From the NCBI RefSeq assembly GCF_036971445.1, contig NC_091480.1, positions 11,594,001 to 11,658,000 on the forward strand: 64,000 nt of DNA, given 5' to 3'. Below the pieces are notes generated by a model. That model saw only the letters and a list, made by a program, of their open reading frames with translations. It was not told where the DNA came from and ran no database searches. Position numbers and translations under genes: made by a program. Positions 1 to 55,573 of this stretch are shown here, piece after piece. Numbering within the stretch: position 1 is the first letter of the stretch; every line of letters starts with the position of its first letter. Source of the DNA: Narcine bancroftii (lineage: Eukaryota).

Positions 1-81
1 TCTGATTTGTAATGTTTTTCTCCAATTTTTTTTTAGGGTTCTGTCACAATCCAGGGATTTTTCTCCAAGAAGTCTTTGAAT
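1..81 (-). pseudogene. REXO5: REXO5 pseudo-exon start (IQRLLGEKSLDCDRTLKK/LEKNITNQ vs VQRPVTELTLDCDTLVNELEGDSENQ)
   Basis: Acceptor mutated (ttttcaa); frameshift in an A-run; runs off the window. Confidence 0.75.
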
Positions 82-136
82 TTGAAAAGGTAGAATAAAC
101 TAGTTTTAATTATCTGTTATGTTATTTGGAACTATG

Positions 137-655
137 GGAGATTTGCCAAATTTGGAGTATTGTGTACAGTTTTGGTCACCTAACTACAGGAAAGATATCA
201 ATAAGATTGAAAGAGGGCAGAGATTTACTTGAATGTTGCCCAGACTTCAGGAGCTGAGTGACAGGGAAAGATTAAACAGTTTAGGACTTTTTTCCTTGGA
301 GTGTAGAAGAATGAGGGGAGATTTAATAGAGGTATTTAAAATTATGAAGGGTATAGGCAGTTAGGCTTTTTCCACTGAGGGTGGGTGAGATACAAACCAG
401 AGGATATGGATTAAGGGTGAAAGGGGAAATGTGTAGGGGGAACTTCTTGACACAAAGACTGGTGGAACAAGCTGCCAGCTGAAGTGGTGAATGCAGGCTC
501 AATGTTAACATTTAAGAAAAATTTGACAAGTACATGGATGGGACAGGTATGGAAGGCTATGGACCAGGTACAGGTCAATGGGATCAGGCAGAAAAATAAA
601 TCGGCACAGACTGGAAGGGCCAAAGGGCCTGGTTCTGTGCTGTAAAGTTCTATGG
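137..655 (+). mobile_element. CR1 LINE 3' fragment
   Basis: Typical CR1 C-terminal coding remnant and 3' tail. Confidence 0.7.
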
Positions 656-1584
656 AAAATGAGCTGTACTCTTCAATTAAGTTTAAACAGATGGGAAGAC
701 CATTCCTTTTAGTCCACATTCTTAGTGTTTTGGAGAAAGTGATCGAGATCGAGAGCACTAATTCTACAACTGAAAACTCCCTCTTTCATCTTAATCAGAG
801 ATAAGTAGATTATTTGTGTGGTAAGAAACAACGCTTGATGGAAAAAGTACATTTATCATGATTCTAATTAAAGCGTGGGTCCTTTGGAAGTTCATCAAAG
901 AATCCAGTTAAATACAAGGATCAGAAAACCATGCTGAGGGGTGAGGTAACACAAGCATCATTAGATTCATGTCAGAAGCATAGAGAGAGGAAGAAAAAAA
1001 AAACTTGTACCCAAGAAATTAACTTTTTTTTAAAAAAACAAAAGTTTACTCAAACTGCAACTACACTACAAAACTACAAAAACTCTACTCAGGACTGGAT
1101 CTAAACATACTATTTGCACAGATGGAATTCACAAGAAGCCGTAAATCACGTTAACTGCCTTCATGGAGGCTGCCTGACTTGCTGGAGCTTTATCAGCATT
1201 TTCTGGTTTTCATTGAGATTTTCAGCATCCCGTTTTAAATTTTAATATATATCCTACAATGGCCGATATTTTCCTCCTCAATTCCCATAAAAAAACGCAA
1301 GACAGTTAGAAATGATTAATTAATTAACGTGTCTACTCATCAATTTGAAATTTTAGCAATAATAAGTTTTAACTCCTAGTTCAAATTTTATAGAGAACAG
1401 ATGCAGTGAAAAAAGTGATCATATGCTTATGTTAAGTATAAAACTAGACAACATTTGAACTACTGTGCACAAGATAATTGATTCCTGTTCCCTTCATGTC
1501 CCGGGATTGTAGGTCAATTGGGTACAATTGGGTGGCAAGAGCTCGTGGGCTGAATGGGTCGAATGTATGTCTACATGAAATTAA

Positions 1585-1663
1585 ATGAATGAGAAATCCA
1601 GCTACAATGTTTCCATTTAATGCTGTCACTTTCGGGAACTCTGTATTGAATCCGCATGCAAGG
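1585..1663 (-). pseudogene. REXO5: REXO5 pseudo-exon (PCMRIQYRVPES/VTALNGNIVAGFLI vs PHLCIQYEVLEAAQLAIESLDGILVDGICI)
   Basis: Acceptor mutated (tttgtaa); internal frameshifting deletion; donor replaced by a SINE tail. Confidence 0.8.
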
Positions 1664-1831
1664 TTACAAAGGGAATGAAAAAGAAAAAGTCACAGAACAG
1701 CTTGATGTCCTTTTAAATCACTTCCTCATAATTTCATTCCCTTTGTTCTGGGCTAATAGGTATTGCTGGAAAATTATTATTTACAGAGCTCATTTCATTC
1801 TCAAGTTTTAAGTTGTATTTAGCAAATGAGG

Positions 1832-2143
1832 TCTTCTTTGGCTTGGCTTTGTAGACGAAGATTTATGGAGGGGTAATGTCCACGTCAGCTGCAGGCTCAT
1901 TTGTGGCTGACAAGTCCGATGCGGGACAGGCAGACACGGTTGCAAGGGAAAATTGGTGGGTTGGGTGTTGGGCTTTTCCTCCTTTGTCTTTTGTCAGAGA
2001 GGTGGGCTCTGCAGTATTCTTCAAAGGAGGTTGCTGCCCGCCGAACTGTGAGGCGCCAAGATGCACGGTTGGAGGTGATATCAGCCCACTGGCGGTGGTC
2101 AATGTGGCAGGCACCAAGAGATTTCTTTAGGCAGTCCTTGTAC
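1832..2143 (-). mobile_element. RTE-clade LINE 3' fragment
   Basis: Near-identical to the reverse complement of 13675-13995. Confidence 0.85.
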
Positions 2144-3604
2144 ATTAAGTTTAATACAGAAAACAGCAAGTTCTTACAAAAAGATAAAATTCAATGGATT
2201 TGACGAATCCTTTTCCCATAAAATTGCCCAAGGAACAAATGTTGGCCAAGAGATCAACACATTTTTCCTGCTCTCTTTTAAATAAACCTTTCCATAACGA
2301 ACCGAGAGTGAAACCTTGTTTACTGTTTCATCAAAAAGATTGCACCCTCAACAATGTCGCACTATACCAGCCTAGGTTTTGTACACCTGACTCAGACAAG
2401 AATGCCTTTCCCGGGAAATCAAATTAGCACCAGTAACATGAAGGGTGAATTCTGGGTAATGAATGCGATATGGACTAGCAGATCAGCTGCAACCTATTTG
2501 AGAAGATGACATTTTGGATCTAGTACGTTGCCACAGAAAAGGGTTGAATAATAATCTTTCTGTGAAGGGATCCCAAGGAAATGGTGACTATCTTGTATGA
2601 TAGGATTGTAAATTATGTTCATAAGTGATGCAGTTCAATCCAGAGTTTTTAATCTCAAGAAATAAAAATTGATAAACTGAAAAACTACACGAAGACAGCA
2701 TGTCAGCTGACAGTCAATAATGATCACAAAGTGAAAATACAGCATTAGCAACAAGTACAGAAATATTTTAAGGCATGAAAATAAACCAGGAAAAGTTTTC
2801 CAACCATATTATATTTAAGGAAAATGTTTACGATTCCACTGCAGCCCTGAGAACTTTCCACTATTCAGCAAATGATGAACAACAACAAACAAGAGGAAAA
2901 TAGAGAACAAGGCATCAACTGACAAGAAACAAAAGAAATCAGACTTTAAAAGCATCTGTCAGAAGGTACAAAGGAAAAGATTAATGAGACAAGCATGGGT
3001 TTGTTACAGCTGGGAGACAAGATAATTTATGGCAGACAGCGGCAGAACAATTAAACAATTCTTCAGGTCTGATTTCACAGAGGATACAAAAAAACTCGCA
3101 AGGGCAGTGGGATCTTGGTGCAGTGGTTGGTGCTGGTACTGCCTCAGAGACTTGGGTGCTCACAGTGTAGAGTTTTCATGCCCTACCCGTGGGCGTGTTC
3201 TGGTGCTTCAGTTTCTTCCGAAATCCTGAAGTTCTGCTGGTAGGTAGGTCGGTAAATTGGCTACTATAAATGTTCCCAAGTGCAGGCAGGTGAAAGGAGA
3301 AATGGAAATGAGGAGAGGGGGGTGATGATGATCCAGATGCAAAAGAAGAATGGGATTAGAGAGCAGGCAACACTAAAAAAATTTTACAGTACACAATGCA
3401 CTAGAAAGAATTACGGCTCCCAATACACATCATTACCCGAATTGGTCCCGGAATGCCAGAAGTACAGTTTAGACTGCAGGCATTCTGGGAATTTTAGTAG
3501 GTCCTTTTAAGGAAAAAAGACAGGACTGGAACGACCCCACACCCCACCCAATTCCGTCTCCGTGCTTTTTCGGGAAAAAGGAGAAAATGTCCTAGAATGA
3601 AGTG

Positions 3605-4700
3605 GCTGTGTAAAAAACATAATTAATAAATATGTCTAATGCCTTCTAAAATACTAACGTTTCTGATATGATTCCTGCAGATTGGAGAGTGGTAAATGTG
3701 AATTCACTATTTTAGAAAGGAGAGAGTTAGAAAACAGGAAACATGGACCTGTTAGCAACCAACAGCATTAGGGAAAACGCTACAAACAAAAAAATGTGAT
3801 ATCAAAACACTTTGCAAATAATATGATTGAGCAAAGTCAAATAGATTTATTGACACCCATCTACAGTAATCCCATTTTTCTTTTGCTTCCCAATCACCAA
3901 CACCCCTCCCCTCATTTCCATTTCTCCTTTCATGCTTGAATGCTTTGACGATATATCTGATAGATGATGGGAAACCAGTGGATGTGGAGCACTGGATTTT
4001 TCGGGCATCTTCCAATAAGGTTCCACACAGGAGGATGGTGAACAAGATTCAAGCACATGGAATTAACGACAGTATAATAGTGTGGGTTGAGAATTGGTCA
4101 ATATTGCTAGAAAACAGGTTCCTCTCAGACTGATCTTTGGGGTTCCACTGGGTCAGCCCTTAGACTCCAACTGTTTAAAATATTAATGATTAATTTTGCT
4201 GAGAGGACTAAATGTAATATTTCTAAGTTTATTGATGGTTTGAAACAAAGTCTGAGCTGCAAGGAGGATGCAAATAGCCGGTCCATATTTCTTGCAACTC
4301 ACAAGTATTTCCTGATGATAAGAGACGAGTTACCGTGAATATTTATTATCTATATTTTGTATTTATTCTTTTTGTAATTTATCATATACCACTATAGTTT
4401 TTTTCTTATGAAATACCTGTTTGGCTGCAACAAAAATTTTTGTACATATGTACATTGTTCAATGCATATGACAATAAACTCATTATCAGACTGGGAAACA
4501 ATATTTATAAGAAACTTGTTGTCCTTGTTTATCTCATTCAAAGCTAGCATACAATTATGAAGGTGAAAGCCATGTTGGTCTTTATTAGAAGTGGATTTGA
4601 AGACAAGGGTAAGGATCCTTATTACAATTATATAAGCACTCGTGAGACCACAACTGGAGTACTGTGTACAATTTGGGTCTATTTGCCTACAAATGGCTTT
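3605..4700 (+). mobile_element. Degraded CR1 RT fragments (continuing at ~6300-6550, interrupted by other repeats and the Hero element)
   Basis: DGKPVDVE..NKVPHRRMVNKIQAHGI matches CR1 RT. Confidence 0.6.
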
Positions 4701-4719
4701 ACAGAGCAGGTACATCAGC

Positions 4720-6230
4720 TCAGGAAGGATGCTGTGGACTTAAGAGCATCAACAGAACCACACTACCTGGCAAGTTGAAGCTCTGGTGTACGCATTTTGG
4801 GTTCTTTCCACACCTCATGTGGTCATTAACCCTGTATGAAGTTCCAGTCTCGAACATGGAAAAGCTGGAAAGACTGATCAACTCATACATAAGGAAGTGA
4901 CTTGGTCTTCCCAGGAGCCTTAGCAGCATAGGGCTTTAGGCAAAGGAGTCCTAGAGCTACCCATTTCCAGTCTTTCAGTGCGCAAAGGTAAGACTGGAGA
5001 TGATGTTAACAGAGGTGAGTGATCCATTTGTAGCTCAAGTTGCCGTCATCCTGGATAATGGAAGGAAATGTTCAAGCATAGGGATATCGTGGGGGGAGTG
5101 CAGCAAGGGAGGAACGGTTTTGGTCTTGGGGCAAGTACATCAGCCTGGAACAAGGCAGCTCCATCTCAGAAACAGAGGTTTGTGACGGAGGAGATATGTC
5201 GGCAGGAGGAGGCAGCAAGCTATGCAAAGGCTGTTGCTCAGGCAAGGCAAGGGCAATGGACAAGATGGGAGGTGGTGGAGAAAAGGAAGATCTCCTGGAA
5301 AGAGCTGTGGGAGATGGAGACAGAGCGAACTTTACTATCATGGCTCAGACAACGTCTTGCCATCGGCCATGAATCCTAGCCAGTGATGTGGAGAGGACCG
5401 TACATGCTCCCTCTGCCTGACACTAAAACATATCTTGATGGGCTGCAAGACCAGCCTCATTCAAGGCCGAAACATCTGGCATCACAACCAGGTGCTATGG
5501 TGCCTTGTAGCAGTGCTGGAAAATTGGCAGATGGGTGTCAATGCTCTCCCTCCCCCTTCATCCCACTGGCCATTAACAGCATTTGTCCGGGAAGTTGAGG
5601 GTTAAGCCAGAATCGCCATGTCAAGATTAGACTCCAGGAAGTTAGATGGAGCACATGATTGGAAGATGGCAGCAGACTTAGACCAGAGGCTCTGGTTCCA
5701 AAATGAAATCATGGAAACCAGTTTCAGACTTTTAGCAGACCTTGAGCTGTGGTCGGCCTCACTCCATCTCATTTACATCATTGAACTTACAATGCCCTGG
5801 GAGGATGAAGTGGAGAAGGCCTATAAGCGCAAGAAACTGAGGAACGCTGAGCTTGCAGCTGATGTGCAGCAACATGGCTGGAAGGCAAGGGTCCGACCGG
5901 TTGAAGTAGGCTGCAGGGCTGCAGAGGATTTGTAGCCACGTTGACATCAAGGCTACTCCAGAAGTTGGGAGTGTGATGAAAGATACACCGACAAGCAGTC
6001 AAAGATCTCTCCAGAGCTGTTGAAAAGGATAGTCAGTGTCTCTGGATGAGGAGAAAGGATTCTATCTGGGCCCCTGAGAGAGTGAACGGCATCTAGGATG
6101 TGAGGCTGGGATGCCGGAATTCACTGCTGAACCCTCCGGAGGTGTCGTGGGTCTATCAGCGAAACACTGAGGAAGGAGAACTTGATAACCCAGAAGATGC
6201 CACCACTCACATGGCTTTGCTGTAGAATCC
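4720..6230 (+). mobile_element. Decayed RLE-type non-LTR retrotransposon (Hero/R2-group), 3' half
   Basis: CSLC..KHILMGC knuckle; DLELWS..IIELTMPWED..AYKRKKLRNAEL..GWKARVRPVEVGCR restriction-like endonuclease; frameshifted. Confidence 0.8.
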
Positions 6231-6815
6231 AGGCAGCAAGTCTCAGGAGTGCAATAATGGATATTAACATCTAGTCCTACATAACATACCATATCTCTGG
6301 GGGAAATAATGTGAAGATTTACTAGACTTGTTCATGAGATACTAATTATGGCATATACAAAATACATATTAGGGCTCTCCAAGGTCAATCTGGAGAGTTT
6401 GTATCCCTTGGCTAAAGTCTCCAGAACTAGGAGACCATAATTCAAAGTAAGAAATGAACAATGAGGACAAATTTCTTGATTAAGAAGGTGATGAATCTTT
6501 GGAATTATTTTCCTTCAAGGACAATAGAGACTCAGTCAATTATTACATTCAGTGGACTGCAGCAACACACTGTCAAAGACTGCCCCCTTTGATCTGTTCC
6601 AAGGCAGGTGGCCAATATTCATGTGACCATCTGTCATTGCCAGGCAATTGCATTAACATCTAAGTACTTATAAACTGTAGTTCTTGAGAGAAGATTAATG
6701 TCTAAGCGACAGATATTTTAATCCAAGCAATCCTTTAGTTTAATATATTGGCTACAATTATTACATGAATTACTAATGCACAAGAGGCTACTCTTGCTTT
6801 AATTACTGTATGTAC

Positions 6816-6944
6816 CTTGTATGTTTCCATGGCAACGCTGAAGGAATTGATGGAACCACAATTTCTGAATGCTCTTTCAACAGACTTTCAACGGAAATCC
6901 TTACAGACCGGCCCAGCAAACACGTCTGACAATTTTTGTTTCAT
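6816..6944 (-). pseudogene. REXO5: REXO5 RRM exon (MKQKLSDVFAGPVCKDFR*KSVERAFRNCGSINSFSVAMETYK vs MRIKWTEISTVYAGPFSK..FVLETRQ)
   Basis: ctcttacag / gtacat; in-frame TGA and a 3-codon deletion. Confidence 0.85.
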
Positions 6945-8269
6945 CTGTAAGAGAAATTTGAAAATGGAAAATAGATAAGACGTGTCAAGGAAGCTTCTTT
7001 GATGAAAGGCAGTGATCTCTGAACAAATGTCATCAAATACTTTGATGAAGGGCTCAAGCCTGGAACATCGGTGATGTATCTTTATCTTTGCTACATAAAG
7101 GACACTGTTTGACCTGTTGAACTTCTCCAGCATCGTGAGTTTTTTACTTCATCCGCGGTGTCTACAGAATTTTGTGATTTACTTCTGAACAAATGACAAT
7201 CACAATGTTAACTTGCCTACCAAGAATTTTGGATTTGATGACAAAATTAGCATTTAACATCCATCATCAACTTCTCAATCAGTAAAGTTCTTCTGGTGAA
7301 TGAGAGGTGACACAGTAAATGCAGATGTAGATAGATCTCCTGTCTTGGAGTCAAGAACCAGGGATCACAATTTCAATATAAATAAGCTAGCCTTTCTGGA
7401 CAGAACTAAGAAGAAATACAGTAAAACCCCTGTTATCTGGAATTCAAGCAACCAGCAGCCTCAAGCAACTAGCCAATCCATGCAACTGGCAAATACCCTA
7501 GACATACCATTGACCAATTCCCTTAGGTGCTGGATACTGGAGGTTTTACTGCATCTTCATCCAGAAGGTGGCCAATATTCAAAATTCACCACTCAACAGA
7601 TCTGTAAAGACTCAGTCATTGAGTAAATTCAAAACATCTAAAAAAAGGTCTATTAAGGAAACCAATGGATAAGTACAAGAAAGTGCCTTGAGGGTAGAAG
7701 ATCAGCCATAATCTTATCAAATGGCAGATGAGCCACCAAGGGCTCAATGAACTCCTCATGCTTCAACTTATGCTCTTACCAGTGAAACAAAGATTATTTT
7801 GTCCAAAGCAGGACTTAGGGGTATTTTTCCATTTTTAAAAATCAGTTAAAAGCTAAAACATTCAATAATATTCTTTGAGGTAAAGGAATACCTATACAGC
7901 TTCAAGATATTCAAAATGACATTATGGTCAAAGAAACACAGTAAGTGCTGTAAAATAGATAATATGGTAACATTTTATGCACAGCAAGTTCCCACATAAC
8001 CAGAACATTAAAATGCATTGCAATGACTTGCCCTACATATTTCAACAGCACTTCTCAAGCACATGATCTCAACCAAGAACAAGGGCATGCAGTGAACAAA
8101 AGCATTACCTGTACTTTCCCCTTCAACTCGCACCATATCCAAACTTTGAATTACATCACAGATCTTTCATCATTGCATGGTCCATGTCCTGATCTAATAG
8201 TGTGTTGGGAGTACCTTCACCATAATGACTTCAGCGATTCTGGGTGGCAGCTCACCACCACTATTTTAG

Positions 8270-8550
8270 AACAGAGAACATTACAGCACAGTACAGGCCC
8301 CCAGCCCATGATATTGTGCCGACATATGGAAGCCTAGTCAACAATCTAATCTTATCCTAATTCATACCTATGATTTTCTCCATGTGCCTGAGTATTTTGA
8401 ATGCTCTCATTGTACCAGCCTCCACCACTAACCCCAGCAAAGCATTCGAGACACTTACCACTTCCTGAGTAAAAGACTTAGCCCTGACATCTCTCCTGAA
8501 TGTTCCTCCACTCACCTTAAACCTACATACTCTGGTATTTGCTACAATAC
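8270..8550 (-). mobile_element. CR1 LINE 3' fragment
   Basis: FRRDVRAKSFTQEVVSVSNAL motif. Confidence 0.6.
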
Positions 8551-8614
8551 CAGAGGGCATTCCAAATGATTGTCAATTGGGGATGGACAATAAATCCTGG
8601 CTTTGCCTGACTCT

Positions 8615-8683
8615 TCAGATTCCAAAGTCCTTACAGATCGGCCCAACATACACAATGCACATCTCCACCAACTTCTGTTTCAA
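8615..8683 (-). pseudogene. REXO5: REXO5 RRM exon, truncated duplicate (LKQKLVEMCIVYVGPICKDFGI*)
   Basis: ttctctgcag acceptor; paralogous to 6816-6944; similarity ends at repeat sequence. Confidence 0.7.
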
Positions 8684-9029
8684 CTGCAGAGAAATCTGAA
8701 AATATTATGAATAAGTGTCATTGGTATTGAGAAAGAAAGTGGATACGAGGCCAACCATCAGTTTAGAATGACTTTAATGGATGGTGGAGTTGGCTCAAAG
8801 TACTACACGAGTAACTCCTGCCCTTCATTTCTTATGTTTTTCCACATCATACTCCCACAGTGCTTCAGGGAAAGTGTTTCACTTCTTCCTATCAGTGATG
8901 ATGAAGGCATGTCAATATAATTTATGTCAGGATGGTGTTGGAAGAGGAACTTGCTGTCATCCTGTGTGTCTATTGTAAATGAAACAAGTTGCTCCAGTAG
9001 TGATCAGTAGTTCATTGTAGTCCACTTCA

Positions 9030-9660
9030 GAACTCCGATTGTGGATACATAACACCTCCTCACTTGCCAGGAAGGCACAACAGCGACTGAACTTCCCGAG
9101 AAGACTGAAGTGGGCAAGGCCACCATCCTGTCAAGTTTCTACAGGAGCTCTATCAAGAGTGTCCTGGCCAGCTGCATCACAGTGTGGTACGGTTTTTGCA
9201 AAGCATCGGATCAGAGGTCTATCACAGGACCATAAGAGCACCATAGAAGATTACTGAAATCTCCCTCCACCACCACCCCCCCTACCCCCAATATCAATGA
9301 GATTTACTGGGATCATTGTTTTAAGAGAGCTTGCAAAATCTGTAAGGACTCCTACCACTCCGCACACAGGATCTTTCAGCGACTCCTGATGGGAAAGAGA
9401 TGTAAAGTATTAGAGCCAGATCCAACAGGCGAAAGAACAGCTTCTTCCCATGGGCAGTGAGACTGCTGAATGACTAAAACAACTCCCCATGACTCTATTA
9501 TAATTTTAATAATATTAATGTTTAATATATGTATATAAGACATGCATATAAGTTTTGTGAATCTGTATTATTTGTCTGTATGTGTGAATGTACGATGGAC
9601 CAGAGAACACTGTTTTGTCAAGTTGTACTGTTACAATCAGATGACATATAATCATGAACT
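9030..9660 (+). mobile_element. Rex1/Babar-like LINE 3' fragment
   Basis: RKAQQRLNFPRRLK; shared tail. Confidence 0.6.
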
Positions 9661-9966
9661 TTTATTTGTAGCCACAATGGGTTGGCAATTAATTATATTT
9701 ATCTATTTCTATTGTGAATGCAGAAGGTACAATCTGTGGTGTAGGTTATAATAGTGCATTGAATTAATTGGACAGTATCCCCATTCCTTGATACATTGAA
9801 CACTGAGTCAGACAGGAGAGCCAGTGGGATGGCATCATTGCCAATTAACACCCAATATTGTCATACCTTTGTTCCCATATATCAATACACCGGAATTCTC
9901 TTCCCGATAGTGTTGTGGGAGAAGTATCATTACAAAGCTGAAATAAAGAGGCCCATACTGCCACTG

Positions 9967-10206
9967 CCAATGAGGGGAAAGACCCAGACTTCCAATGAGG
10001 GGAAAGGCCCAGACTTCCAATGAGGGGAAAGGCCCAGACTTCCAATGAGGGGAAAGGCCCAGACTTCCAATGAGGGGAAAAGCCCAGACTGCCAATGGGG
10101 GGGAAAGGCCCAGACTTCCAATGAGGGGAAAGGCCCAGACTTCCAATGAGGGGAAAGACCCAGACTTCCAATGAGGGGAAAGGGCCTGACTTCCAATGAG
10201 GGGAAA
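9967..10206. repeat. 25-bp minisatellite (ccaatgaggggaaaggcccagactt) x ~9.5
   Basis: Direct reading; period 25. Confidence 0.95.
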
Positions 10207-10601
10207 ACAAATCCCACACACAACTTTTATTAAAAATGTTATTAAAATCATGCAAGCAGCCAATAAATCTTTTCTGTACTGGGATGATGAAGATCACTTT
10301 AACATCTACTTACTTTGCTAATAACATAATTGAAAGCTGGAGTGGCCTCTTGAGGTTCAATAGTGAAAGCATATTGCTGTTCATAGCCAGATTAGACCAT
10401 CTGGCTCTATATATTTGATTCTGGAAGTCTTGTGAATAAAGAAAGGATGTAAATTATAAGAAAGTCACTCCATTCACTATTTAATAGACAAATTATTTCT
10501 CATAATTGACTGATATGTTTATGCACATAATTTCTCAAAAAGTGGTCTGATGGATTTCTACTACTAAACAATGACTGCACTGCTATTTCTGTCTGTCATA
10601 C

Positions 10602-10728
10602 CCTTTCATGCAGTTGTCTTATGTTGACTTTCATATATAGATCATTTTCAAATCTAGTCCACATAAGATGCGAAGTGAATTACACTTAAGGCAGTTGCTG
10701 GGATGTTGGCCTGAGTATACTGAACAAC
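10602..10728 (-). pseudogene. REXO5: REXO5 pseudo-exon (VVQYTQANIPATALSVIHF.. vs VLEQARVEIPLFPFSIVQF)
   Basis: ttctgcag / gtatga; 127 nt, frameshifted with stops. Confidence 0.7.
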
Positions 10729-11799
10729 CTGCAGAAAACATATTCCATGTATGTTCAGAGACAAAGTGTTACATCTTAAATTTTTTTTTATTAGCAAGGA
10801 GTAAAATCTTCTGATGGATGATCACAATCTAGTCCAATGTTTGAGACAGATTGTGATCATCTCAACTTTGCTCTACATTAATGTGAAAAACTATATGAAA
10901 AGGCAACCCTTCACTAAAGATTTCAATTGGCTTCATTTCTGAGGGAAGTTTCCTTGCCATAATTGTTTCATTTTATAGATGGAAAAAACAATGTGTTGGA
11001 GGCACTCAGTGGATTGAGTATCATTAGTGAGAGAAAAAGAAGTATCATATTTCAAGTTAGAATCCTTCAAGATCTGAAACGTCAACAATTATTTTTCTTC
11101 CACTGACACCACCAGCCCATTGAGTTCTTCCAGCAGATTGTGCTTTGATCCCGATTCCTACATCTGCAGTTTCCTGAGTCGCGGTTTGTAGGTCTGCTAC
11201 GCAGGGCTTCACAAGATGAGGAAACAGTAAACTAAATGCAACATAAAAACAAACTAATAGCATCCGTCAAATTAACGGAATGGCAATTTAGCAATCTATC
11301 TAATCAAAGAAACATTCACTCAGCACCAGTTCTCTGGACTCAGGCTAGTTGCTTGGAACCCTTTTGATTACTTCGCTTGGAAAACAGTGTATATTTCCCT
11401 AATCAAGTTTCTCCCATCCCACAGAATGTATATTTGTATAAGGATTGCTATTTTGCCCTCCTGACATTGAGTTTTTCAGCTTCCACACTGGGGTGGTTTA
11501 GTGCTTTCCTCTTCCCAACTCTGCCTACATATCTCTGATATCTTGGTTCTCTTCTTTGAGGTCATCTGGTCATCAACCTCTCCTGTTCCAATCATTGCTT
11601 TCCATTCTCTTCTTCAATTCTAGTTCCTGGCTTGGTCTATTAGCCCCTCCTTCCTTTTAACCCCTTTTACTCTCAGTATAGAACATGCCCAAGATGATTA
11701 TGCAATGCCACAAAAATGTGACTATAAAACATTATGCAAAACTTATTTTTACATAAGAAATGCTTTGTTTTTGAATGGAAAGGTATAAATTATACAGGC

Positions 11800-12640
11800 A
11801 CAATTCCAATGCCATCTACGAGTTTGCTGACGACACCACAATTCTCGGCAGAATCACAAACAGAAATGAGGAAGCGAACAGGAGGGAGGTAGATCAGCTC
11901 ACTGAATGGTGTAACAACAACAACTTTGCGCTCAGTGCCAGCAAAACCAAGATGATTATGTACTTCAGGAGGAAGTCAGGGGAACTCATTGAGGGCTCAG
12001 TAGAGGGTAAAGAACTTCAAATTCCTCGGTGTCAACATCTCTGAGCATCTGTCCTGGAGTGTCCACGTTGTTGCAATCACAAAGAAGGCTCTCCAGCGGC
12101 TATACTTTGTGAGGTGTCTGAGGAGATTTGGTAGGTCACCGAAGATTCCGAAAACTTCTACAGGTGCACTGGGGAGAGCACTCTGGCTGGTTGCATCACT
12201 GCCTGGTATGGAGGTGCCAACTCTCAGGACAAGAATAAATTCCAGAGGGATGTTAACTTCTCCTGCAACATCACAGGCACCAGACTTCACCCCATCGAGG
12301 ACGTCTACATGAAGCAGTGTCTTAAAAAAAGCAGCCTCTATCCTCAAAGACCCCCACCACCCAGGCCATGCCCACTTCACTCTGCTACCATCGGGGAAAA
12401 GATACAGGACCCTGAAGTCGAGCACTCAGCGGCACAAGGACAGCTTCTTTCCCACTGCCATCAGATTCCTGAATGATCAATGAATCAAAGACACTGCCTT
12501 ACTTTTCATGCAATTTTATTGTTAATATTATTTTATCTTTTATAGTTATGTCAAAAGATGGTTACATGTATGTTTACCCTATGATTCTGCCACAAAACAC
12601 CTAACCCTAACCCTAAACCTGTTCGTAACAATAAATCCTA
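11800..12640 (+). mobile_element. Rex1/Babar-like LINE 3' fragment
   Basis: IYEFADDTTILGRI RT motif; KKALQRLYFVRCLRRF. Confidence 0.75.
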
Positions 12641-13302
12641 ATTCTGTCCTAGCTGAATGTTAATCGTGCCAGTGGTATGAATGAAGGCTCAAAGCGAAGA
12701 AAAATTTAAACTTGAGCTCCCAAGAGTCAACTATTTTAACTCCCCCCCCAACCATTTCCACAATTACATGTCTGTCCTCAGGCTCATCATTGTTAGGGTG
12801 AGGCTAAGTATAAACTGGAGGACTGCCTTAAATCTAATGGCATTAACAATGTTTCCTAATTTTATGTCACCTCCACCTAATTTCTCTGTTTCCATCTCTT
12901 CTTCACCTACTTCTGTACTCATTTTTCCCCTCAAACTTTTCTCTTCCACCCTCTTCCTAATGATCTCTTCCTCTTTCTGTCTTTCCTCCTCTCACATCTT
13001 CTGTCCTATCACCTCTGGGCCATTCCCCCAGTTTCATTCCTCCTTTATATATGTGATTTTAAAAATCTAATGTTGATCAAGGGCTTAGACTAAAAACAAT
13101 GATTGACCATTTTGATCGATGGATGCGTTCTGACCTACTGAGTTCCTTCAGCAATTCTTTGACCGCTTCAACGAATTGTAGAGGGTTTAATTTGTTCCTT
13201 GTTTCCATGTCGAGAGCCAATATATCTTGGCTAATTATGATGGATGGAATGAACTTTTCTTGTGCGCAGAAATTGGAACAAATATGGCTTCACATTCTTT
13301 AC

Positions 13303-13404
13303 CTCCTTGTTGGTTTTACATTTAATTTTATGCCAAGCTTCACAGCTTTCTTTGTTCCTATCAGTATTACCTATTGATCACTTAGATACACTTGTTTCAG
13401 CAAA
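13303..13404 (-). pseudogene. REXO5: REXO5 pseudo-exon (SLLKQVYLSDQ*VILIG../..WHKIKCKTNKE vs SVLECLDSVGQKLLFL..IKCLSNKE)
   Basis: ccctctag / gtaaag splice sites; in-frame TAG plus a frameshift. Confidence 0.8.
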
Positions 13405-13423
13405 CTAGAGGGAAAAAATTACA

Positions 13424-13995
13424 GACCTACGGCTCCTAGAACGCTTCCACCAGCGTTGTCTCCGCTCCATCCTCAACGTTCATTGGAGCGCTTACATCCC
13501 TAACGTCGAAGTACTCGAGATGGCAGAGGCCGACAGCATCGAATCCACGCTGTTGAACATCCAGCTGCGCTGGGTGGGTCACGTCTCCAGAATGGAGGAC
13601 CATCGCCTTCCCAAGATCTTGTTATATGGCGAGCTCTCCACTGGCCACCGTGACAGAGGTGGACCAAAGAAGAGGTACAAGGACTGCCTAAAGAAATCTC
13701 TTGGTGCCTGCCACATTGACCACCGCCAGTGGGCTGATATCACCTCAAACCGTGCATCTTCGCACCTCACAGTTCGGCGGGCAGCAACCTCCTTTGAAGA
13801 AGACTGCAGAGCCCACCTCACTGACAAAAGACAAAGGAGGAAAAACCCAACACCCAACCCCAACCCACCAATTTTCCCTTGCAACCGCGTCTGCCTGTCC
13901 CGCATCGGACTTGTCAGCCACAAACAAGCCTGCAGCTGACGTGGACATTCACCCCCTCCATAAATCTTCGTCCGCGAAGCCAAGCCAAAGAAAAA
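13424..13995 (+). mobile_element. RTE-clade LINE, 5'-truncated 3' end
   Basis: LRWVGHVSRMEDHRLPKILLYGEL..KRYKDCLKKSL; shared 3' end with copies at 1832 and 41485. Confidence 0.85.
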
Positions 13996-14001
13996 CATGA
14001 G

Positions 14002-14210
14002 AACACAAGAAATACTGGAGGAACTCAGCAGGTCACACAGCACCCATAGGAGGTAAAGATATATCACCAATGTTTTGGGCCTATTGGTACCTTGAAGAAG
14101 GGCTGGGGCCTGAAACATTGTAAATAAATCTTTACCTCCTATGGGCGCTGTGTGACCTGCTGAGTTCCTCCAGCATTTCTGTGTCTTTACTGCAATCACT
14201 GCAGACTTTT
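14002..14210. repeat. Palindromic Penelope-derived terminal repeat pair (fold-back)
   Basis: ctggaggaactcagcaggtcacacagcacccataggaggtaaagat and its reverse complement about 60 nt later. Confidence 0.75.
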
Positions 14211-15696
14211 ATGTATCATTCCATAAGAAGACAAGTTTTTTTACTGAAGTCAAACATTTGCCTTGAGATATAAGCTTTTGTCTCAACAAAACTGCATCCA
14301 CATTGAATAATATGCCCATTTATCTTCTCAAATTTCATTAATATATTTTTATGTCATTAATAATCAATGCAGGTACATCCATCACAAATATCAACCAAAT
14401 AGAATGAACATATAGCAGCCAAGGTATTTAGATCTTTTTCAAGCCATAGTGTCAATAATGTTGGGTACAATACACTCTTTCCCTCACTGTTCTTACTCAA
14501 ACATTGCTTTCTAGTATTAATGTGGCAGAAATAGCAATAAAATAATTTCTTAAATAATTTAGACATACAGGCCATTTGGGCCCACAAGCCCAAGCTGCCC
14601 AATTACATCCAGTTGGCCTACAACTCCCAGTATGCTTTGAATGGTGGGAGGAAACTGAAGCACCTGGAGGAAATCAACGCAGGAGAACATACAACCTCCT
14701 TACAGGTAGCAGACAGCGCTGGATACGAACCTAAGTCACTGGCGCTGTAACAGTGTTGCGTTAACCTTGCCGCCCCTTATAAAGACTAATAAAATAAAAC
14801 AGATATTTTGTTGAAATATTAAATTATAATTTCTAATTAGAACACAATGTTCCTGTTAGATTTTAAATGTAATTAATTAATACCACCACTGTTTATTATT
14901 AAGCACCAAAGCTAAAAAAACCCAAAATGCAACCTGTCAGCATTTATTAGTTTTTAAGATGCAAAATATCTATTCTACTGGGAGATGATGGGGGACAAAG
15001 TAACAGGATCATGTTTCTGACAATAAATGATTAGAAATCCTATTTGGCAGATTCAGTAATTAGATGCACAATTAAGTAAATTGGCAGAAGTTCAGCTTCG
15101 ACAACTGACCTGGATGGACAAGATTCTGTTTGGGATTTTGTCCATGAAGCCCCCAGAGGACATTGCATCAGTCTTTTATCACTATAATGGTTCTGGTTAG
15201 ATAATTAGCCAAACAAAAACAATGTCATTAGTTCTCTCATGGGTAGCTTTATCTGGTTAAAATCCAATCATAACTCTGTACAATTTCAAGGTATTATTGG
15301 CCCTTGGCAACCAATATCTAAGATCTTTGGACTTTGGAAGAAAGAACATGTTCAGTTTACCCATGGGTTCAAAGTGCACATTCTATCAGCTGAGCCCAAG
15401 ACATGGAATTCTTGGTACTGCTGCTCAGGGAATTACTGAATCTGCCAAACAGGATATAATAAATAATTTTCATATAAGAACTTGTCATATTAAAAACTAA
15501 TATATGCTAAATGAATAATAAATGCTGAGAGGTTGCATTTTGTCGTTTCCACCCCCCCCCCTCCCCGACCAATGTTAGGGCAGGTAGCTATCCAAAAGAA
15601 ATGAGATGGTCTGTTTTTGAGGGCTAACCAGTGAGTAGTCTGCACTGAAGAATTTGCATTTCTTTTCACCTTGTTTAAAAATGATCCAACATTTAC

Positions 15697-15905
15697 AGTA
15701 AACCTCCGTTATCTTGAATTCAAGCAACCAGCAAACAAAAAATCATGGTAAATAAAGAGGCAAAAATGTGGAAGTTTCAAATTGGCACACCCTAGTGGTT
15801 TGTTCACCAATCACACAGCACGCAACCTCAAGCAACCAGAAATTCACTTATCCGGCATCTACCAATCCCCATAAGTGGTGGATATCGGACCGGGGTTTTT
15901 TACTG
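15697..15905. mobile_element. Tc1/mariner (Tigger-like) MITE; related copies 7419-7551 and 38982-39750
   Basis: TA|CAGTAAA..TTTACTG|TA termini; shared internal tcaagcaacc motifs. Confidence 0.65.
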
Positions 15906-16241
15906 TATTTGGAAGTAACAGAAGAGACTTGTGTTGGTGAAAGAATGGGTTTAGCAGAAATGTATTATCCAAAGTTCCTCCTCTCAGAGCTGAGACCAAT
16001 GAATTGAGGACCACGCTTTCCCATTAGGTGGTATATTCATGCAGAGGTAATAGAATTAAACACAGGAAAACAATATGAAATCGTACTAGGCTTTGCAATG
16101 TCATGTGACCTGGAAAGCTGATGAGGTTCTCAGAAGAAAGTAACAAAAGTGTGAATGCTATTAGAATTGATAAATGTCATGAACTAACTTGTCATGGTGC
16201 ATCCATCCATCCTTCTGCAACTTGTGCTCAGCTTGCTTGAC

Positions 16242-16335
16242 CTTTTCCCCTGACTTCTGGTTTCAGGCTGTGGTATGATATCATCTCCCATTGGCTGCCA
16301 AGCTTGGAAATTTTCCAGGCTCTGCTCTCTGCTAT
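16242..16335 (-). pseudogene. REXO5: REXO5 pseudo-exon (IAE/QSLENFQ.. vs human IAELNLEAL)
   Basis: ttgcttacag acceptor; 2-nt AG duplication causes a frameshift; 3' boundary uncertain. Confidence 0.55.
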
Positions 16336-16629
16336 CTGTAAGCAAAGTGTTTGCTGAATTCTTTATTCATAACAGATGAAAACAAACTGTGCTCTGAAAA
16401 TAAAGATATACAAAGAAAAAAAGCCCCGTCTTTTTATCCAGTGGAGTTGTTTTGTGAAAACTGAGCTTATCAAATCGACGACATTCCCTCAAATTTATTT
16501 AACAAAGCTATCAGTCTCCCAGCATCTGCTGCCAAATGCAATGACATAGAGTTCAACAAAAACGTGACAGTTTTAAGCAGCTACACATGAAGGTTCTGGA
16601 AGAGCAGATTTCACTTAGAGACATTTTAT

Positions 16630-17050
16630 GGTATAAGCAGAATCAAAATTTATTGTCATGAACATGTCACAAAATTCATTGCTTTAGGGCAGCATTAGAA
16701 TGCAAACATTTATATAAACCACCTTACAGAATAAGTAAAAATAGTGTAAGAAAAAGAAACAGACGAAGTAATGCAGTGCCTATAGTTCATTGTGCCTTCA
16801 GGAATCTGACGGCAGAGGGGAAGAAGCTGTCCTTGTGCTGCTGAGTGGTCGTTTTCAGGCTCCTGTACTTTTTTCCCGATGGTAGCAGAGTGAAGATGGC
16901 ATGGCCTGGATGGTACAGTTACTTGAGGATACAGGTTGCTTTCTTAAGACACTGCGTCAAGTAGATGTCCTCGAAGGAATGAAGACCAGTGCCTGTGATG
17001 TCACAGGCCAAATGAACAATGCTCTGGAGTTTTTTCTTGTCCTGAGCAAT
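16630..17050 (-). mobile_element. Rex1/Babar-like LINE 3' fragment
   Basis: Reverse-complement similarity to 12220-12640. Confidence 0.65.
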
Positions 17051-17371
17051 ACTTGAAGCACAATGTTAGCAGCAGTTGTGTCTGTGGAACACCTTGACAG
17101 TCGTCGGACCAGAACAGAGAATGCTGGGGTCACCCAAGTTGTTATAAATTGCAATTCGCAGTTGGTTAAAATTATTCTAGCCAATCAATAGCATGACTTC
17201 TTGCAAAGGAGTTCTGATAATGGAGAAAACATAACAAACTCCACATTGCTTGAATGATCTATACACACTTGTGCTCTCTAACCAGCCTCACTTTTGTGCT
17301 GTATAATTCTTTGATCAAGTAAAACAGGACACTTACATTATGGTCTGCATTTTTAAGATTAAGAGAACACG

Positions 17372-17585
17372 TGGCACGGCTAGCACCATGCCATCAAAGC
17401 GCCAATGACTCTGGTTCAAATCAGCGTTGTCTGTAAGGAGTTTGTACGCTCTCCATGTTGTGTGTGGGTTTCCTCCAGGCGTTCTGGGTTCCTTCCACCC
17501 GTCAAAATGCATGGGACTTGTGGGTTAATTGGGTGGCACAGGCTCGTGGGCCGGAAGGGCCTGTTACCGTGCTGTATGTCTGAAT
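17372..17585 (+). mobile_element. V-SINE/HE1-like SINE; other copies ~14560-14775(-), 28240-28460(-), 31725-31930(-), 43710-43940(-)
   Basis: ggagtttgtacg..gtgggtttcctcc core and gaagggcctgttaccgtgctgtat tail. Confidence 0.6.
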
Positions 17586-17919
17586 TTAAATTTATTCATG
17601 TAACGTTGAGAAACACTGAGGATGATGTGGGGTGGAGGGGATTACTGTGGAGATATTAAATATATCTTTACTTCAGTCTTCAGACAAAAACATTACTCCG
17701 TAACACTACACCAACCATTAAAAATCTGTCTGCACTACTGAATTAGCACATTTTTGCACTACTGCAATTGTGAATATATATCTATCTTTATATTGATTAC
17801 CATTTTTTCCCTCATGATGTGTTAATTTAATTTATATGTATTGTTTGTACATTTTACAAACCAGTGTAGCTGTAGCATAAAAGAATTTTGTAGCTTCTGA
17901 AGATTGTATTGATGTCAGA

Positions 17920-18600
17920 ATCAGAATTTATTGTCATGAAATTCTGTGCAAATGTACATGTTATAACCATCTAACAACATTACGATAAGAAAAGTAGTGC
18001 ATGAAACGTAAGTCAGTGTCTTTGCTTCAGGATTCTGATGGCTGAAGCTGTTCTTGAGCCGTTCAGTGCTCGTCTTTAGGCTCCTGTACCTTTTTCCCAA
18101 TGGTAGCAGAGTGAAAAGGGCATGGCCTGGATGGTGGGGTCCTTGTGGAAAGAGGCTGCTTTTTTAAGACACCATGTCCTTGATGGAGTGAACTCTGGTG
18201 CCTGCTATGTCACAGGCCATTAATGACCCTCTGGAGTTTATTCTTGTCCTGAGAGTTGGCACCTCCATACCAGGTAGTGATGCAACCAGCCAGAATGGTC
18301 CACCTGTAGAGGTTTACGAGAGTCTTCGGTGACATACCAAATCTCTGGCGAGCCTTGTTTGTGATTGCATCAACGTGGAGACAACAGGACAGATCCTCAG
18401 AGATGTTAACATCCAGGAATTTGAAGTTCTTAACCCTCTCCATTACTGAGCTCTCAATGAGGACTGGGTTGTTTTCCAAACTTCCTCCTGAAGTCCACAA
18501 TCATCTCGATTTTGCTGGCATCGAGCGCAAGGTGGTTGTTGTTACACCATTTAATAAGCTGATCTCTCTCCCTCTTTAAGTCTCCTCATTCCCAATGGAG
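17920..18600 (-). mobile_element. Rex1/Babar-like LINE 3' fragment
   Basis: Reverse-complement similarity to 11880-12640. Confidence 0.7.
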
Positions 18601-19129
18601 ATTCTGTGGGTGATTTTTAACATCATAAGCTTTAATCAAAACTTTTCTGACAATTTCGCTGAATGTTAAGTTTAATTATCAGAAACTATTTCCCAGTTTT
18701 TATAAAATTACACTATTTTTGGGCAATACTAATATTAAAATTTCTGATACTGATATGCTTTACTGTTACTTGAAATTACTGAAATAACCTGGCATTTTTA
18801 AGTACATTTGTGGTTCTATTACTCTAATACCAATGGCTTTAGAGTCAGTCATATGGCACAGAACAGGCCCTTCAGCCCATCTGATCCATGCTGTTCAACT
18901 TGGCATTCTGGGCTTGTACTTGCTTGCATTTGGTCCACATCCTTCCGATCCTTTCCTAGCGATTTATCTCTCCAAACGTGTTTTTTATCATCACTTTGAC
19001 CCTTTGCCAAAACCTGACCTGAAATGTTAACTCTGTTTCTCTTTTAACAGATGCTGCCTCACCTGCTGAATGTTTTCTGTTTTACTTCAGATTTTCGTCC
19101 TCTGCAGACATTTGAATTTTATTAAAGTA

Positions 19130-19790
19130 AAATACAATGCTGGAGAAACTCAGCAGGTCAAATAGTGTACTTGATTTGACAAAGATAGATACATAACCAT
19201 AGTTCAGGCTTAAGCCCTTCATCGAGGTACGAGCAAAATGTAGCCAAGTGCCTACAGGGGAGGGAGGGGCACATCACCAAACAAGGGGAGGGGGGATGGA
19301 TCTGTGAATGGAGAGGGACGGGGGTGGAGAGGAAGAGGAAATGAGACAGAGGGATAGGGAAGAGAGGAAGAATGGGGAATGATCTGGCAGAACATCCATC
19401 TGGCTGGAGAGTGGTAAGATAGAAAATTAGGTATATGGCCATGGACAGACATGTCAGCACAGGTGTGGGGTGTAGAATTGAAATGGTTGAACACTGGGAG
19501 ATCCCTGTCATTGATGTGGACAAAGGTGCTCAGTGAAGCGATCTCCGAGTCTGTGTCCAGTTTCTCCGACGTAGAGAAGGCCACAGCAGGAGTACCGGAT
19601 GTAATAATGACTCCCGCAGATACGCAAGTGAAATGTTGGGACTGGGAGACCACTTGATTAAGGGCTCAGTCCTGAAATGTTGGTTATGTATCTTTATCTT
19701 TGCTATATAAACGGTTGGATGTGCTGAGTACCTCCAGCATTGTGTTTTTACTTCAATCACAGTGTCTGCAGGCTTTCGTGTTTTACTTCC
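19130..19790 (-). mobile_element. Penelope-like element remnant (GIY-YIG fragment flanked by pLTR-type repeats)
   Basis: HFTCVSAGVI..YVGETG remnant; LPVFNHFNS; terminal repeats with hammerhead-like cores. Confidence 0.65.
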
Positions 19791-20739
19791 ATTTGAATCA
19801 TATTCCCAGCCTGGAAGACTGTGTGCATCCGATCCTCGAATATCAGCAGGAGGAGCGAGGGCCAGAACACCAACATCGGGGAACTGGGGATGAGGGCAAA
19901 GACATGAGGCTTCAGATGTTGAAATTTGGAGCAAAAAAAAATCCAAACTGCTGGAGGAACTCAGGGGGTCAATCAGCATCCAATCAACCAAGATGAGAAA
20001 CCCAACAATTGCTGACCTGCCAGGTAGATTGTAAGACGGTTATCTGGTTTCCCCATTCAGGAAGAGGGAAAAGTTAAAGAAAATCTGGAAATCTAAAATA
20101 AAAACAGAATAAGCTGCAAATCAGACACCAGGTTCTTCAGATGCTGAAATCTCAGCAGGTCCTACAAGTCCACAGTAATGGAGAAAATTGATTCCCACAC
20201 ACCCCGAGCCAGTGATAGGAGAAAGATTTGGCCACTCAGCCCTTCAATATGATCATGTCTGATTGGTCTTAGCCTCATTTCCAGTTTTGTGACTCTTCTT
20301 TCAAGTCACGAGGTTTTAAAAATGGATTTTGCTCCTTTTAATTACCGGCAAGATAGAGAGATGTAATTTTCAGGTCAATGGCTTCCAATGGTTTGAACAC
20401 GAGTCTGTGTGACTGCAGAGGCTCCAGGAGTGCTGGAGGTGAACCTACGGACAGTTGTTGACTCTGAAGGGATTCTCTTCATCATTAGGGGTGCCGGGCA
20501 ATGCTCATTGTGACTTTTTATTTGCCCGACAGCAGACCAAAGTTGAAATACATTCTTACGTTTGTATTACATGACAATAACAGGAACCTTAAACACTGGT
20601 ACCCATGCAAGAGAGAGTAATGAAGTGGTACAGTCAGCAATGTCTCTTCAAAAAACCAACCTGAATACTCCCCTCTCGGATTAAACCCCTCACTCCTCCT
20701 CCCTTCACAACTCCCCACCCCCCCCCACTCATACACTCT

Positions 20740-21830
20740 CAAGTCAAGTCACCTTTATTTGTCATTCATACCACGCTCACACAATAAAGACGTGTTAGCA
20801 TTTCTCCACGATCACGGAGCATATTTACAAAAATATAAGTTAAGATTAAAGTTAAACACATTAAAATATTAAGATGTATATTGTAAGAATCCCAGTACCA
20901 AGGTCCTCTATGCAGAGAATTCAGGAATCTGATGGCCTGGAAAAACTGTTGCCCAATCTAGTTGTATGGGTCCTGGTGCTGCAGTAGTTCGTACTAGATG
21001 GCAGAAGGGTGATCAGTTTACTTGAGGGGGTATGGGGAGTCCTTCACAATGCTTATTGCCTTTTGCCTATATCAAGCATTGTAGATGTCCCTCATGGGAG
21101 GAAGGGAAGCCTTTTCCTCTGACTTCACTATCCTCTGCAGTGTTTTGCTCTCCAAGGTGGCACAACTTCCAAACCAGGAGATGATGCAGTTGCACAGGAT
21201 ACTCTCGATACATCCTCTGTAGAACGTAGTGAGGATGAGAGTGGGAGATGAACTTTCCTCAGCCTTCGCAGGGCTTTCTTGGATATGGAGCTGATGTTAA
21301 GGGACCAGGTAACATTCTCCACCAGGTGCATTAATGCACCCCCAGGAATTTGATCCTCCTGACGACCTCAACTGTGGAGCCATCAATGGTCAGCGGAGTG
21401 GCCTGTTGAGGTTGAAAACCATCTTTTTTTTTTAAACATTCAGATACAGGTTGTTGGCTCTGCACCAGTCCACTACTCACTCCTCATTCTTACTAATCAG
21501 GCCCACATGTTTGTGTTGTCAGCAAACTTGATGATGTGGTTCGAGCTGCGTTTAACTGCACAGTTGTGGGTTAGGAGAGTGAACAACAGTGGACCAAGTA
21601 TTTAGCCCTGGGCCCCCCACTGAGCTCAGCATGACGGTCTTGGAGGTGCAGTTTCCGATCTGGAATGCCTGAAGTCTCCCCGACAGCAAGTCTAGAATCC
21701 AATTGCAGAGGGACGGGTTTAGACCCAGTAGGTTCAACTATTGATGTATGATTGTGTTGAGGGCCGAGCTGAAGTCAATAAACAGTATTTGAACATATGA
21801 GTCTTTGTTTTCCAGCTGGGTGAGGGCTAG
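20740..21830 (-). mobile_element. Rex1/Babar-like LINE fragment
   Basis: [17 protein letters not shown]; [14 protein letters not shown] motifs. Confidence 0.75.
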
Positions 21831-21849
21831 GTGTTGGGCTAGGTGAGGG

Positions 21850-22235
21850 CTAGGTGCACCCCCAGTGCACTCCCCTTCCCTCAGCTTTCCCCTTCTCCCT
21901 GCGCACAACCCCCTCCCTGTGTACCCCCTCCTCCCCATTCACAAACCTCTCCCTGCACACCCCCCCTTCCCTGCACACCCCCCTTCCCTGCACACCCCCC
22001 CTTTCCCTGTATACCCCCCTCTCCCTGCACACCCCCCCTCTCCCTGCACACTCCCCCTCCCTGCACACTCCCCCCCTCCCTGCACCCCCCTTGCACACCT
22101 CCCTCTACTCCCCCCTCCCTGCACCCCCCTTGCACACCTCCCTCTACTCCCCCCTCCCTGCACACACCCCCCTTGCACACCTCCCTCCACCCTCCCTCTC
22201 CCTCCACTCCCTCCCTGCACACACTCCCTCCCCAA
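21850..22235. repeat. C-rich low-complexity minisatellite (ccctgcacaccccc variants)
   Basis: Direct reading. Confidence 0.9.
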
Positions 22236-22570
22236 CGAAGCCGCGCGCCAAGCCACCCAGCCCCTCACACTCACCCTGGCTCCCCGGTTACGTCACCGCC
22301 TGACGTCCCGCCTCCTGCCTCTCCCAGTCATCAACGAATCACCGCCGAGCGCGGCCACGGTGACGTCACGGCGGGCGGCGGTTTGAAATCCCAGCGTCGC
22401 CCTCACCCAGAGTGAAGGGAGGGGGTCGGTTCCCAGCGTTTCCGCCCTGCGGCTGAAGTGCATGATGAACACGAAGCAACTGGCCGAGTACGTGCGGCGT
22501 CCAGCGCGCCGGGGCCGCGTGGTCAAGCCCGGCAATGCGCTGCTGGGCCTCAACTCCCGGACGAAGGGCC
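22230..22570. promoter_or_regulatory. CpG-island bidirectional promoter ERI2/REXO5 with CRE/ATF sites and a CHR element
   Basis: CpG-dense; TTACGTCA 22288-22295, TGACGT 22301, TGACGTCA 22361-22368; GGCGG next to TTTGAA (22382-22387); minus-strand donor AGG|GTGAGT at 22275. Confidence 0.75.
22462..22487 (+). CDS. ERI2: ERI2 coding exon 1 (MMNTKQLAE)
   Basis: ATG in CpG island; donor GA|gtacgt; resembles human MATKRLAR. Confidence 0.85.
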
Positions 22571-37392: not shown

Positions 37393-37478
37393 TTAAATCT
37401 TAATGTTTTCCCATTCTTTCTTTCTTAATTCTTCGGATTTTTCCACTCAGTTTTCGGTAGTTGCTTCACAAATTCAAT
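37393..37478 (-). pseudogene. ACSM3: ACSM3 last exon (IEFVKQLPKT/SGKIR/ELRKKEWENIKI*)
   Basis: Two small frameshifting deletions in the PKTxSGK motif region. Confidence 0.9.
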
Positions 37479-37601
37479 CTGAAGAAACAAAAATAGTCAA
37501 TATGTCACTAGTAAAATTTTGACACATTGTACAGTACAACTCCAATGATCTAAAATCCTCATTTATCAGCTGAACTGACCTCAGGTTGGAAAAATAAATT
37601 C

Positions 37602-37800
37602 ACTTGACGTGAAATTAGAATGAAAATGGTCCTTGTTTCAGTTAACTTCTGCCCCTCTTTCCATTTTTTCTTTACCTTCCCTTATTGACTCTTCTCTCCA
37701 ACTTGACATGAAATTAGAATGAAAATGGTCCTTGTTTCAGTTAACTTCCGCCCCTCTTTCCATTTTTTCTTTACCTTCCCTTATTGACTCTTCTCTCCAA
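37602..37800. repeat. 99-bp tandem duplication
   Basis: acttgac.tgaaattagaatg..ctcttctctcca twice, 2 mismatches seen. Confidence 0.9.
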
Positions 37801-38745: not shown

Positions 38746-38865
38746 CTTCCTTGGATATTTATATGGTGCTGTGATTTTCTTAACATAGTCCTGTAATTCT
38801 TTAATTAACTTGTCAGGATCGTGTGAAGTGTAAGTAGGAGTTAGAATGACAAATGCCTTCACAAT
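38746..38865 (-). pseudogene. ACSM3: ACSM3 exon ([19 protein letters not shown])
   Basis: 120 nt open frame, AG/GT intact. Confidence 0.93.
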
Positions 38866-38981
38866 CTTAAAAGAAAAAAAGTTATTTTAAAAAGGAAATA
38901 TTAAAAATATATCAAGTACAGCTATGGGAATCATAAATAGATGCATCAATGAAAAGTAATTTTGCATTTGATTTTAAATTA

Positions 38982-41104: not shown

Positions 41105-41204
41105 TTCTCTAATGGGATCAGGACCTGCTAAACGCAGCAGACTCCGCCACTGCTGGATGTTCTATTAAAATGTATTTTCTAACTCAAATGGTCCAATACG
41201 GTAC
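41105..41204 (-). pseudogene. ACSM3: ACSM3 exon (YRIGPFELENT/LIEHPAVAESAAFS/PDPIRE)
   Basis: Two 1-nt insertions; donor gtgagt. Confidence 0.9.
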
Positions 41205-55572: not shown

Positions 55573-55573
55573 A

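Follow-up and report, generated by a model that had tools for sequence, protein, structure and literature searches.

Unitary pseudogenes, the intron-containing relics that stay at the ancestral locus of a lost gene, have reportedly been described as a set in primates. In cetaceans, reported gene losses include ACSM3 (PMC6760925), and gene fossils can persist as long non-coding RNAs (lncRNAs), as reported for a lncRNA divergent from DPH5 (PMC5577775) and elsewhere (PMC10195156). The gene of concern here is REXO5 (NEF-sp), whose vertebrate product is described as having twin RRMs and a DEDDh exonuclease set in an AlkP fold (PMC12129344, PMC5558908). Mouse REXO5 knockouts are reported to be viable and fertile, and their authors propose that other nucleases take over the function (PMC5558908); in human cells, REXO5 has been linked to the control of R-loops (PMC11436357). 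We analysed 64,000 nucleotides (nt) from the electric ray Narcine bancroftii (contig NC_091480.1 of assembly GCF_036971445.1, forward-strand positions 11,594,001 to 11,658,000), hereafter the window, and we consider it highly probable that it holds an in-place REXO5 pseudogene beside ERI2, likely the sole copy of the gene, which was lost long ago through relaxed selection.

The remnant resembles shark and ray REXO5, here the sawfish protein (Pristis, P0013), in its sequence (151 of 209 aligned positions identical, 72%), exon order, adjacency to ERI2 and placement among batoids, and it differs from a working REXO5 in having neither an open frame nor a DEDDh domain, with RRM1 broken and RRM2 outside the window. 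It is best read as a unitary pseudogene, since it is an intron-containing relic at the ancestral locus with several independent lesions and with intact orthologues in sister lineages. Unlike the primate and cetacean cases, it belongs to an electric ray, its 5′ half is apparently deleted, and both genes flanking ERI2 are broken; the likeness rests on the locus and on a search of proteins of 446-1420 amino acids (aa), by which a single copy is not established genome-wide. To the gene-fossil lncRNAs it is comparable as a lost gene whose divergent promoter also serves a neighbour that is still active, and in showing signs of a spliced transcript with a new exon, whereas the transcript is here a putative one, read from contigs. 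The titles and abstract openings of the literature searched contain no account of a vertebrate lineage that has lost REXO5; supplementary gene-loss tables might list it.

REXO5 remnants upstream of ERI2

Six minus-strand segments, all upstream of ERI2, align colinearly to residues 398-638 of Pristis REXO5, which provides the numbering used throughout, when 13 shark and ray REXO5 proteins serve as the reference set. Their starts are those that the initial annotation had proposed, in the same order, as REXO5 exon starts. As a null, tblastn was run on 40 shuffled or reversed windows, whose top scores ranged from 20.8 to 29.6 bits, and six real matches exceed all 40 (66.2, 64.7, 38.1, 35.0, 30.8, and 30.4 bits). 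The exon at 81 reaches 28.9 bits, above 39 of the 40 null windows, and the 1663 exon is matched in two halves that do not exceed the null singly (24.6 and 22.7 bits), its support coming from colinearity and a linked E of about 0.02. A first homologue search with the 43-aa 6944 exon returned no match, Pfam assigned no family to this RRM1 copy or to the duplicate at 8683 described below, and the best PDB hit to the RRM1 exon had an E of only 1.1. When the 43 codons of the 6944 exon were searched with X at the stop, exactly one match emerged among 1.84 billion proteins (E 1.9e-7), a protein that its source calls RNA exonuclease 5-like and that carries RNase_T and two RRM stretches. As judged from sequence, the six segments descend from REXO5, which is their best match, with whose orthologues they group and whose head-to-head position with ERI2 they occupy. 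The arrangement expected by analogy with human, where we take REXO5 to be adjacent to ERI2, is borne out by the opposite strands of the two genes and by the upstream position of the remnant; for the relatives, 12 elasmobranch species have records of both REXO5 and ERI2, and in all 12 the two are listed on contigs of the same length, which speaks to a shared chromosome and not to adjacency.

Every one of the six exons is damaged by a stop, an indel or a dead splice site, just as the stops, frameshifts and AA acceptors called at the outset would have it. The most upstream (16189..16335, aa 398-453) keeps its AG acceptor, and a GT donor at an inferred position, and has gained 2 nt near 16326 and lost 3 nt at 16234 as well as about 19 nt from its 3′ end, a net change of -20 nt. 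Each of the next three retains both AG and GT: 13303..13404 (aa 453-493) has a TAG at 13373 and a 19-nt deletion, 10602..10728 (aa 494-535) has a TAG at 10656 and one extra nucleotide at about 10650, and 6816..6944 (aa 536-581), the first half of RRM1, has a 9-nt deletion at 6923 and a TGA at 6890. At 1588..1663 (aa 582-611) the acceptor reads TAA, 14 nt are deleted and no GT stands where the donor is expected, and the last segment, 1..81 (aa 613-638), which continues past the window edge, has an AA acceptor and two extra nucleotides within an A run. Over 16 modelled splice combinations the longest ATG frame encodes 66 aa. Intact twin RRMs in an open frame are thus not present, the RRM1 exons carrying a TGA, deletions and dead acceptors and RRM2 lying beyond the window; a protein composed of RRMs only was likewise rejected, given the in-frame TGA of the RRM1 exon and the dead acceptors of the two exons that follow.

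These lesions in an intron-containing locus are present in reads for four of the six exons, where contigs of the DNA run X1 agree with the window throughout, at 0 differences and 0 gaps (15854-16662, 10154-11144, 6264-7066, and 763-1860). Since X1 is possibly the assembly's own sample, the match tests base calls and not fixation in the species. In a second sample, a contig of run X8 (1598-1836, 0 differences) also has the AA acceptor at 1663. The pseudogene status assigned by the initial annotation holds, with all six exons broken and no trace of DEDDh in the window, and its lesions are confirmed in reads to the extent of those four exons. The initial annotation had not remarked on the missing catalytic half, the duplicate at 8683, the broken ACSM-family neighbour or the contig boundary at 3263, all taken up below.

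Residues 1-397, including the whole DEDDh domain, gave no match above shuffle level in the window, where 16336-22460 was searched on both strands, 1-16335 on the minus strand, and the whole window by tblastn. The best score was 35-37, against 30-50 in 12 shuffles, and the remnants listed by the same method score 81-154. Hence neither strand of 16336..22274, the minus-strand interval expected to hold these exons, contains anything detectable, and the catalytic domain that a working enzyme has (aa 242-386 in P0003) has left no trace in the window. An inversion of the 5′ exons was considered and rejected, as it would place them on the plus strand of 16336-22460, where none is found. Upstream, a putative old non-coding first exon (22275..22360, minus strand, 5′ end not fixed) would lie in the GC-rich ERI2 promoter and end in a GTGAGT donor. 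The distance from this donor to the 16335 exon is only about 6 kb, a stretch visibly full of repeats, and as no trace of aa 1-397 remains there, deletion of the 5′ exons would be the simplest reading; the catalytic half appears to have been deleted rather than to have decayed.

A local duplication also produced a partial copy of the RRM1 exon (8600..8683, minus strand, aa 536-563; 26.7 bits) together with the end of its upstream intron (to 8790), which carries a TGA at 8617 and is crossed with 0 differences by an X5 contig (8271-9085). This duplicate retains the 9 nt lost from the 6944 copy and is therefore likely older than that deletion. At about 13425-13990 there is a fragment, which we take to be of long interspersed element type, whose end is about 20 nt away from the acceptor at the 13404 exon; similar pieces occur at about 1850-2140 and 41500-42020.

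Relatives, selection and age of the probable loss

Of 21 named shark and ray species with REXO5, 20 have it at full length (12 sharks and 8 rays or skates) and one, the whale shark, has a partial protein only, so that the orthologue is intact in sister lineages, and its holders include members of each of the other three ray orders. The search covered proteins of 446-1420 aa, and sharks and rays make up the best 15 of the 120 REXO5 clusters listed. None of the 63 members of these 15 clusters bears a Narcine label, 12 of the 63 being skate-cluster members without a species name, and the same protein collection does contain Narcine ERI2, from the NCBI annotation. In trees the remnant groups with batoids at a bootstrap of 100, and its placement among the ray orders receives 48-53; three outgroups, from tetrapods and lungfish, were included in one tree and omitted from a second. 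A lineage-specific loss, as originally proposed, is accordingly likely and not proven, because the comparison is limited to proteins of that size range and does not extend to the whole genome.

The remnant is altered at 17 of 75 columns that are invariant across 15 intact proteins. In order-left-out comparisons, intact rays are changed at 1 of 76 invariant columns (Pristis), 8-9 of 83-84 (stingrays), and 5-8 of 84-86 (skates), and the remnant at 17-20 of the same columns, which amounts to 1-11% in intact rays and 22-24% in the remnant; seven of the eight comparisons reach p<0.05. Selection on the remnant, as read from its sequence, is relaxed, a statement made at the protein level only. The share of altered columns corresponds to about 0.11 neutral substitutions per site (0.07-0.18), or an amino-acid distance of 0.26 (0.15-0.41). 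Across the ERI2 linker, which is poorly conserved, the entire Narcine branch measures 0.30, and set against it this distance suggests that the loss is old, and it likely spans a large part of the electric-ray branch. Branch length alone is insufficient to date it. For orientation, a preprint places the electric-ray crown at about 154 million years ago, and the split of N. bancroftii from N. brasiliensis at 6.3 million years ago (10.1101/2024.11.04.621869). Pieces of run X6, from a second organism (organism B), match with 0 differences in five of the eight listed and are repeat-like in the other three, and none of those listed lies over a REXO5 lesion.

A number of points weigh against an old in-place loss. 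Among the order-left-out comparisons, that with Mobula is not significant (p 0.06), and two of the 17 changes at invariant columns sit right beside the 9-nt deletion, where they may stem from the alignment. The total branch of the remnant, 0.28, is little above what a fast functional ray branch would show. Among the read-derived contig pieces listed, the exons at 13404 and 81 have no cover, and the two extra nucleotides at 81 sit in a homopolymer. The 3′ third of REXO5 lies beyond the window, and a short or unannotated copy could stand elsewhere in the genome, which we regard as unlikely. Finally, the fly Rexo5 is reported to be essential and to trim the ends of rRNA and snoRNA (PMC13215694), so that dispensability is not universal.

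Alternative readings of the locus

The best surviving of the alternatives, which we still regard as unlikely, is that the relic has been retained as a functional lncRNA, transcribed divergently from the ERI2 promoter and spliced from old REXO5 exons together with a last exon that is new. The candidate for this last exon (2686..3263, minus strand) follows a pyrimidine tract and AG and has no similarity to REXO5. Contigs from X5 and X8, putative RNA runs of two samples in one study, both leave the window at exactly 3263, and the DNA run X1 continues uninterrupted across this position (2117-4364). Contig depth at this exon is 287 in X5 and 13.9 in X8, other listed X5 contigs having 5-17. Upstream of 3263, all eight splice sites of the four REXO5 exons are intact, and downstream all three scorable sites are broken (Fisher p 0.006, post hoc). 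Together these hint at a spliced non-coding transcript entering at the AG of 3263, and the reported gene-fossil lncRNAs (PMC5577775, PMC10195156) supply a precedent. On the other side, the RNA nature of the runs is only guessed and the contigs carry no strand, an X5 depth of 5.0 over 10006-10672 argues that the 10728 exon is outside the abundant form, and at the observed divergence chance alone would leave eight sites intact 17% of the time, one of the donors moreover being presumed. The parts of the contigs upstream of 3263 (1106 nt in X5 and 279 nt in X8) may or may not include REXO5 exons, which keeps the probability of a functional lncRNA low; transcription by itself is not function. A transcript of this kind is in any case compatible with the loss of the REXO5 protein.

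Three further observations concern transcription of the region. By eye, the first 130 nt of the candidate exon resemble a decayed short interspersed element. Near-continuous exact X5 contigs at a depth of 8-17 extend across intronic 7157-10012. No RNA dataset record was present for 6600-16500, which is evidence neither way on transcription.

Less probable still is that the gene moved or was duplicated, and that an intact or shortened REXO5 works elsewhere with the present locus as its abandoned parent. The 5′ exons are absent and not visibly decayed, at least one local duplication happened at the locus (that at 8683), and an N-terminal product of about 400 aa would fall below the 446-aa limit of the search. 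Against this stands the lack of a full-length Narcine REXO5 in a collection that contains Narcine ERI2. Furthermore, the nuclease is reported to be embedded in a discontinuous AlkP domain that requires C-terminal strands (PMC12129344), so that the N-terminal half alone would be unlikely to fold like its parent.

An assembly or base-calling artefact in a working gene, to which the lesion in an A run and the two exons outside the listed read cover might point, is very improbable and is largely refuted by the contigs without differences that cross stops, deletions and an AA acceptor in four exons, the lesions including deletions of 9-19 nt and point stops, and the adjoining ERI2 having an open exon of 456 aa.

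Under the preferred reading, that of an in-place pseudogene, a deletion may have removed the 5′ exons from the stretch between the 16335 exon and the shared promoter, sparing that promoter, which ERI2 still requires. The remaining exons would then have drifted neutrally, by about 0.1 substitutions per site, and collected indels, repeats and a partial exon duplication, with the function of REXO5 likely covered by other 3′ exonucleases, as proposed for the knockout mice. Firing of the promoter in its old direction would probably still yield a spliced non-coding RNA that has no selected role.

Neighbouring genes and meaning of the probable loss

ERI2 itself is intact (22455..35084, plus strand), its last exon matching the Narcine bancroftii protein at 100% identity. 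Also intact is the exon that encodes the first catalytic motif (27186-27281, plus strand), which is included in isoform X1 (P0173) and absent from isoform X2 (P0158). Beyond ERI2 lies a broken gene of the ACSM family (37400..53060, minus strand, outer limits approximate), with three in-frame stops (TGA at 52022, TGA at 51920, and TAG at 45619) inside exons alignable to human ACSM2A and with frame breaks, read from the window sequence alone, near 44540, 41170, 41130, and 37450. Motifs expected in the ACSM middle exons were searched for in the window and not found. From human synteny we take this gene to be ACSM3. Upstream of it, a second GC-rich, promoter-like island is seen at about 55200-55600. 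The open reading frames at about 60700-63000 show a fragmented gag/pol region, presumably of a long terminal repeat retrotransposon-like element, and short tandem repeat arrays are visible by eye at about 9960-10200, 29200-29600, and 42050-42400.

What the locus records is a real but fairly ordinary gene loss; as events of this kind are common, the surprise is modest. It is conceivable, though we think it improbable, that the two genes on either side of ERI2, REXO5 and the ACSM-family gene, were both lost in electric rays and that the REXO5 relic was kept as a spliced divergent lncRNA with a new last exon, since its transcription or splicing would support the promoter shared with ERI2; if this were true, electric rays would be a long-lived natural REXO5 knockout among vertebrates. 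A lineage without REXO5 would show that the enzyme is dispensable over the long term in vertebrates, and such a natural knockout would allow one to ask which nuclease trims the ends of 5S and 28S rRNA.

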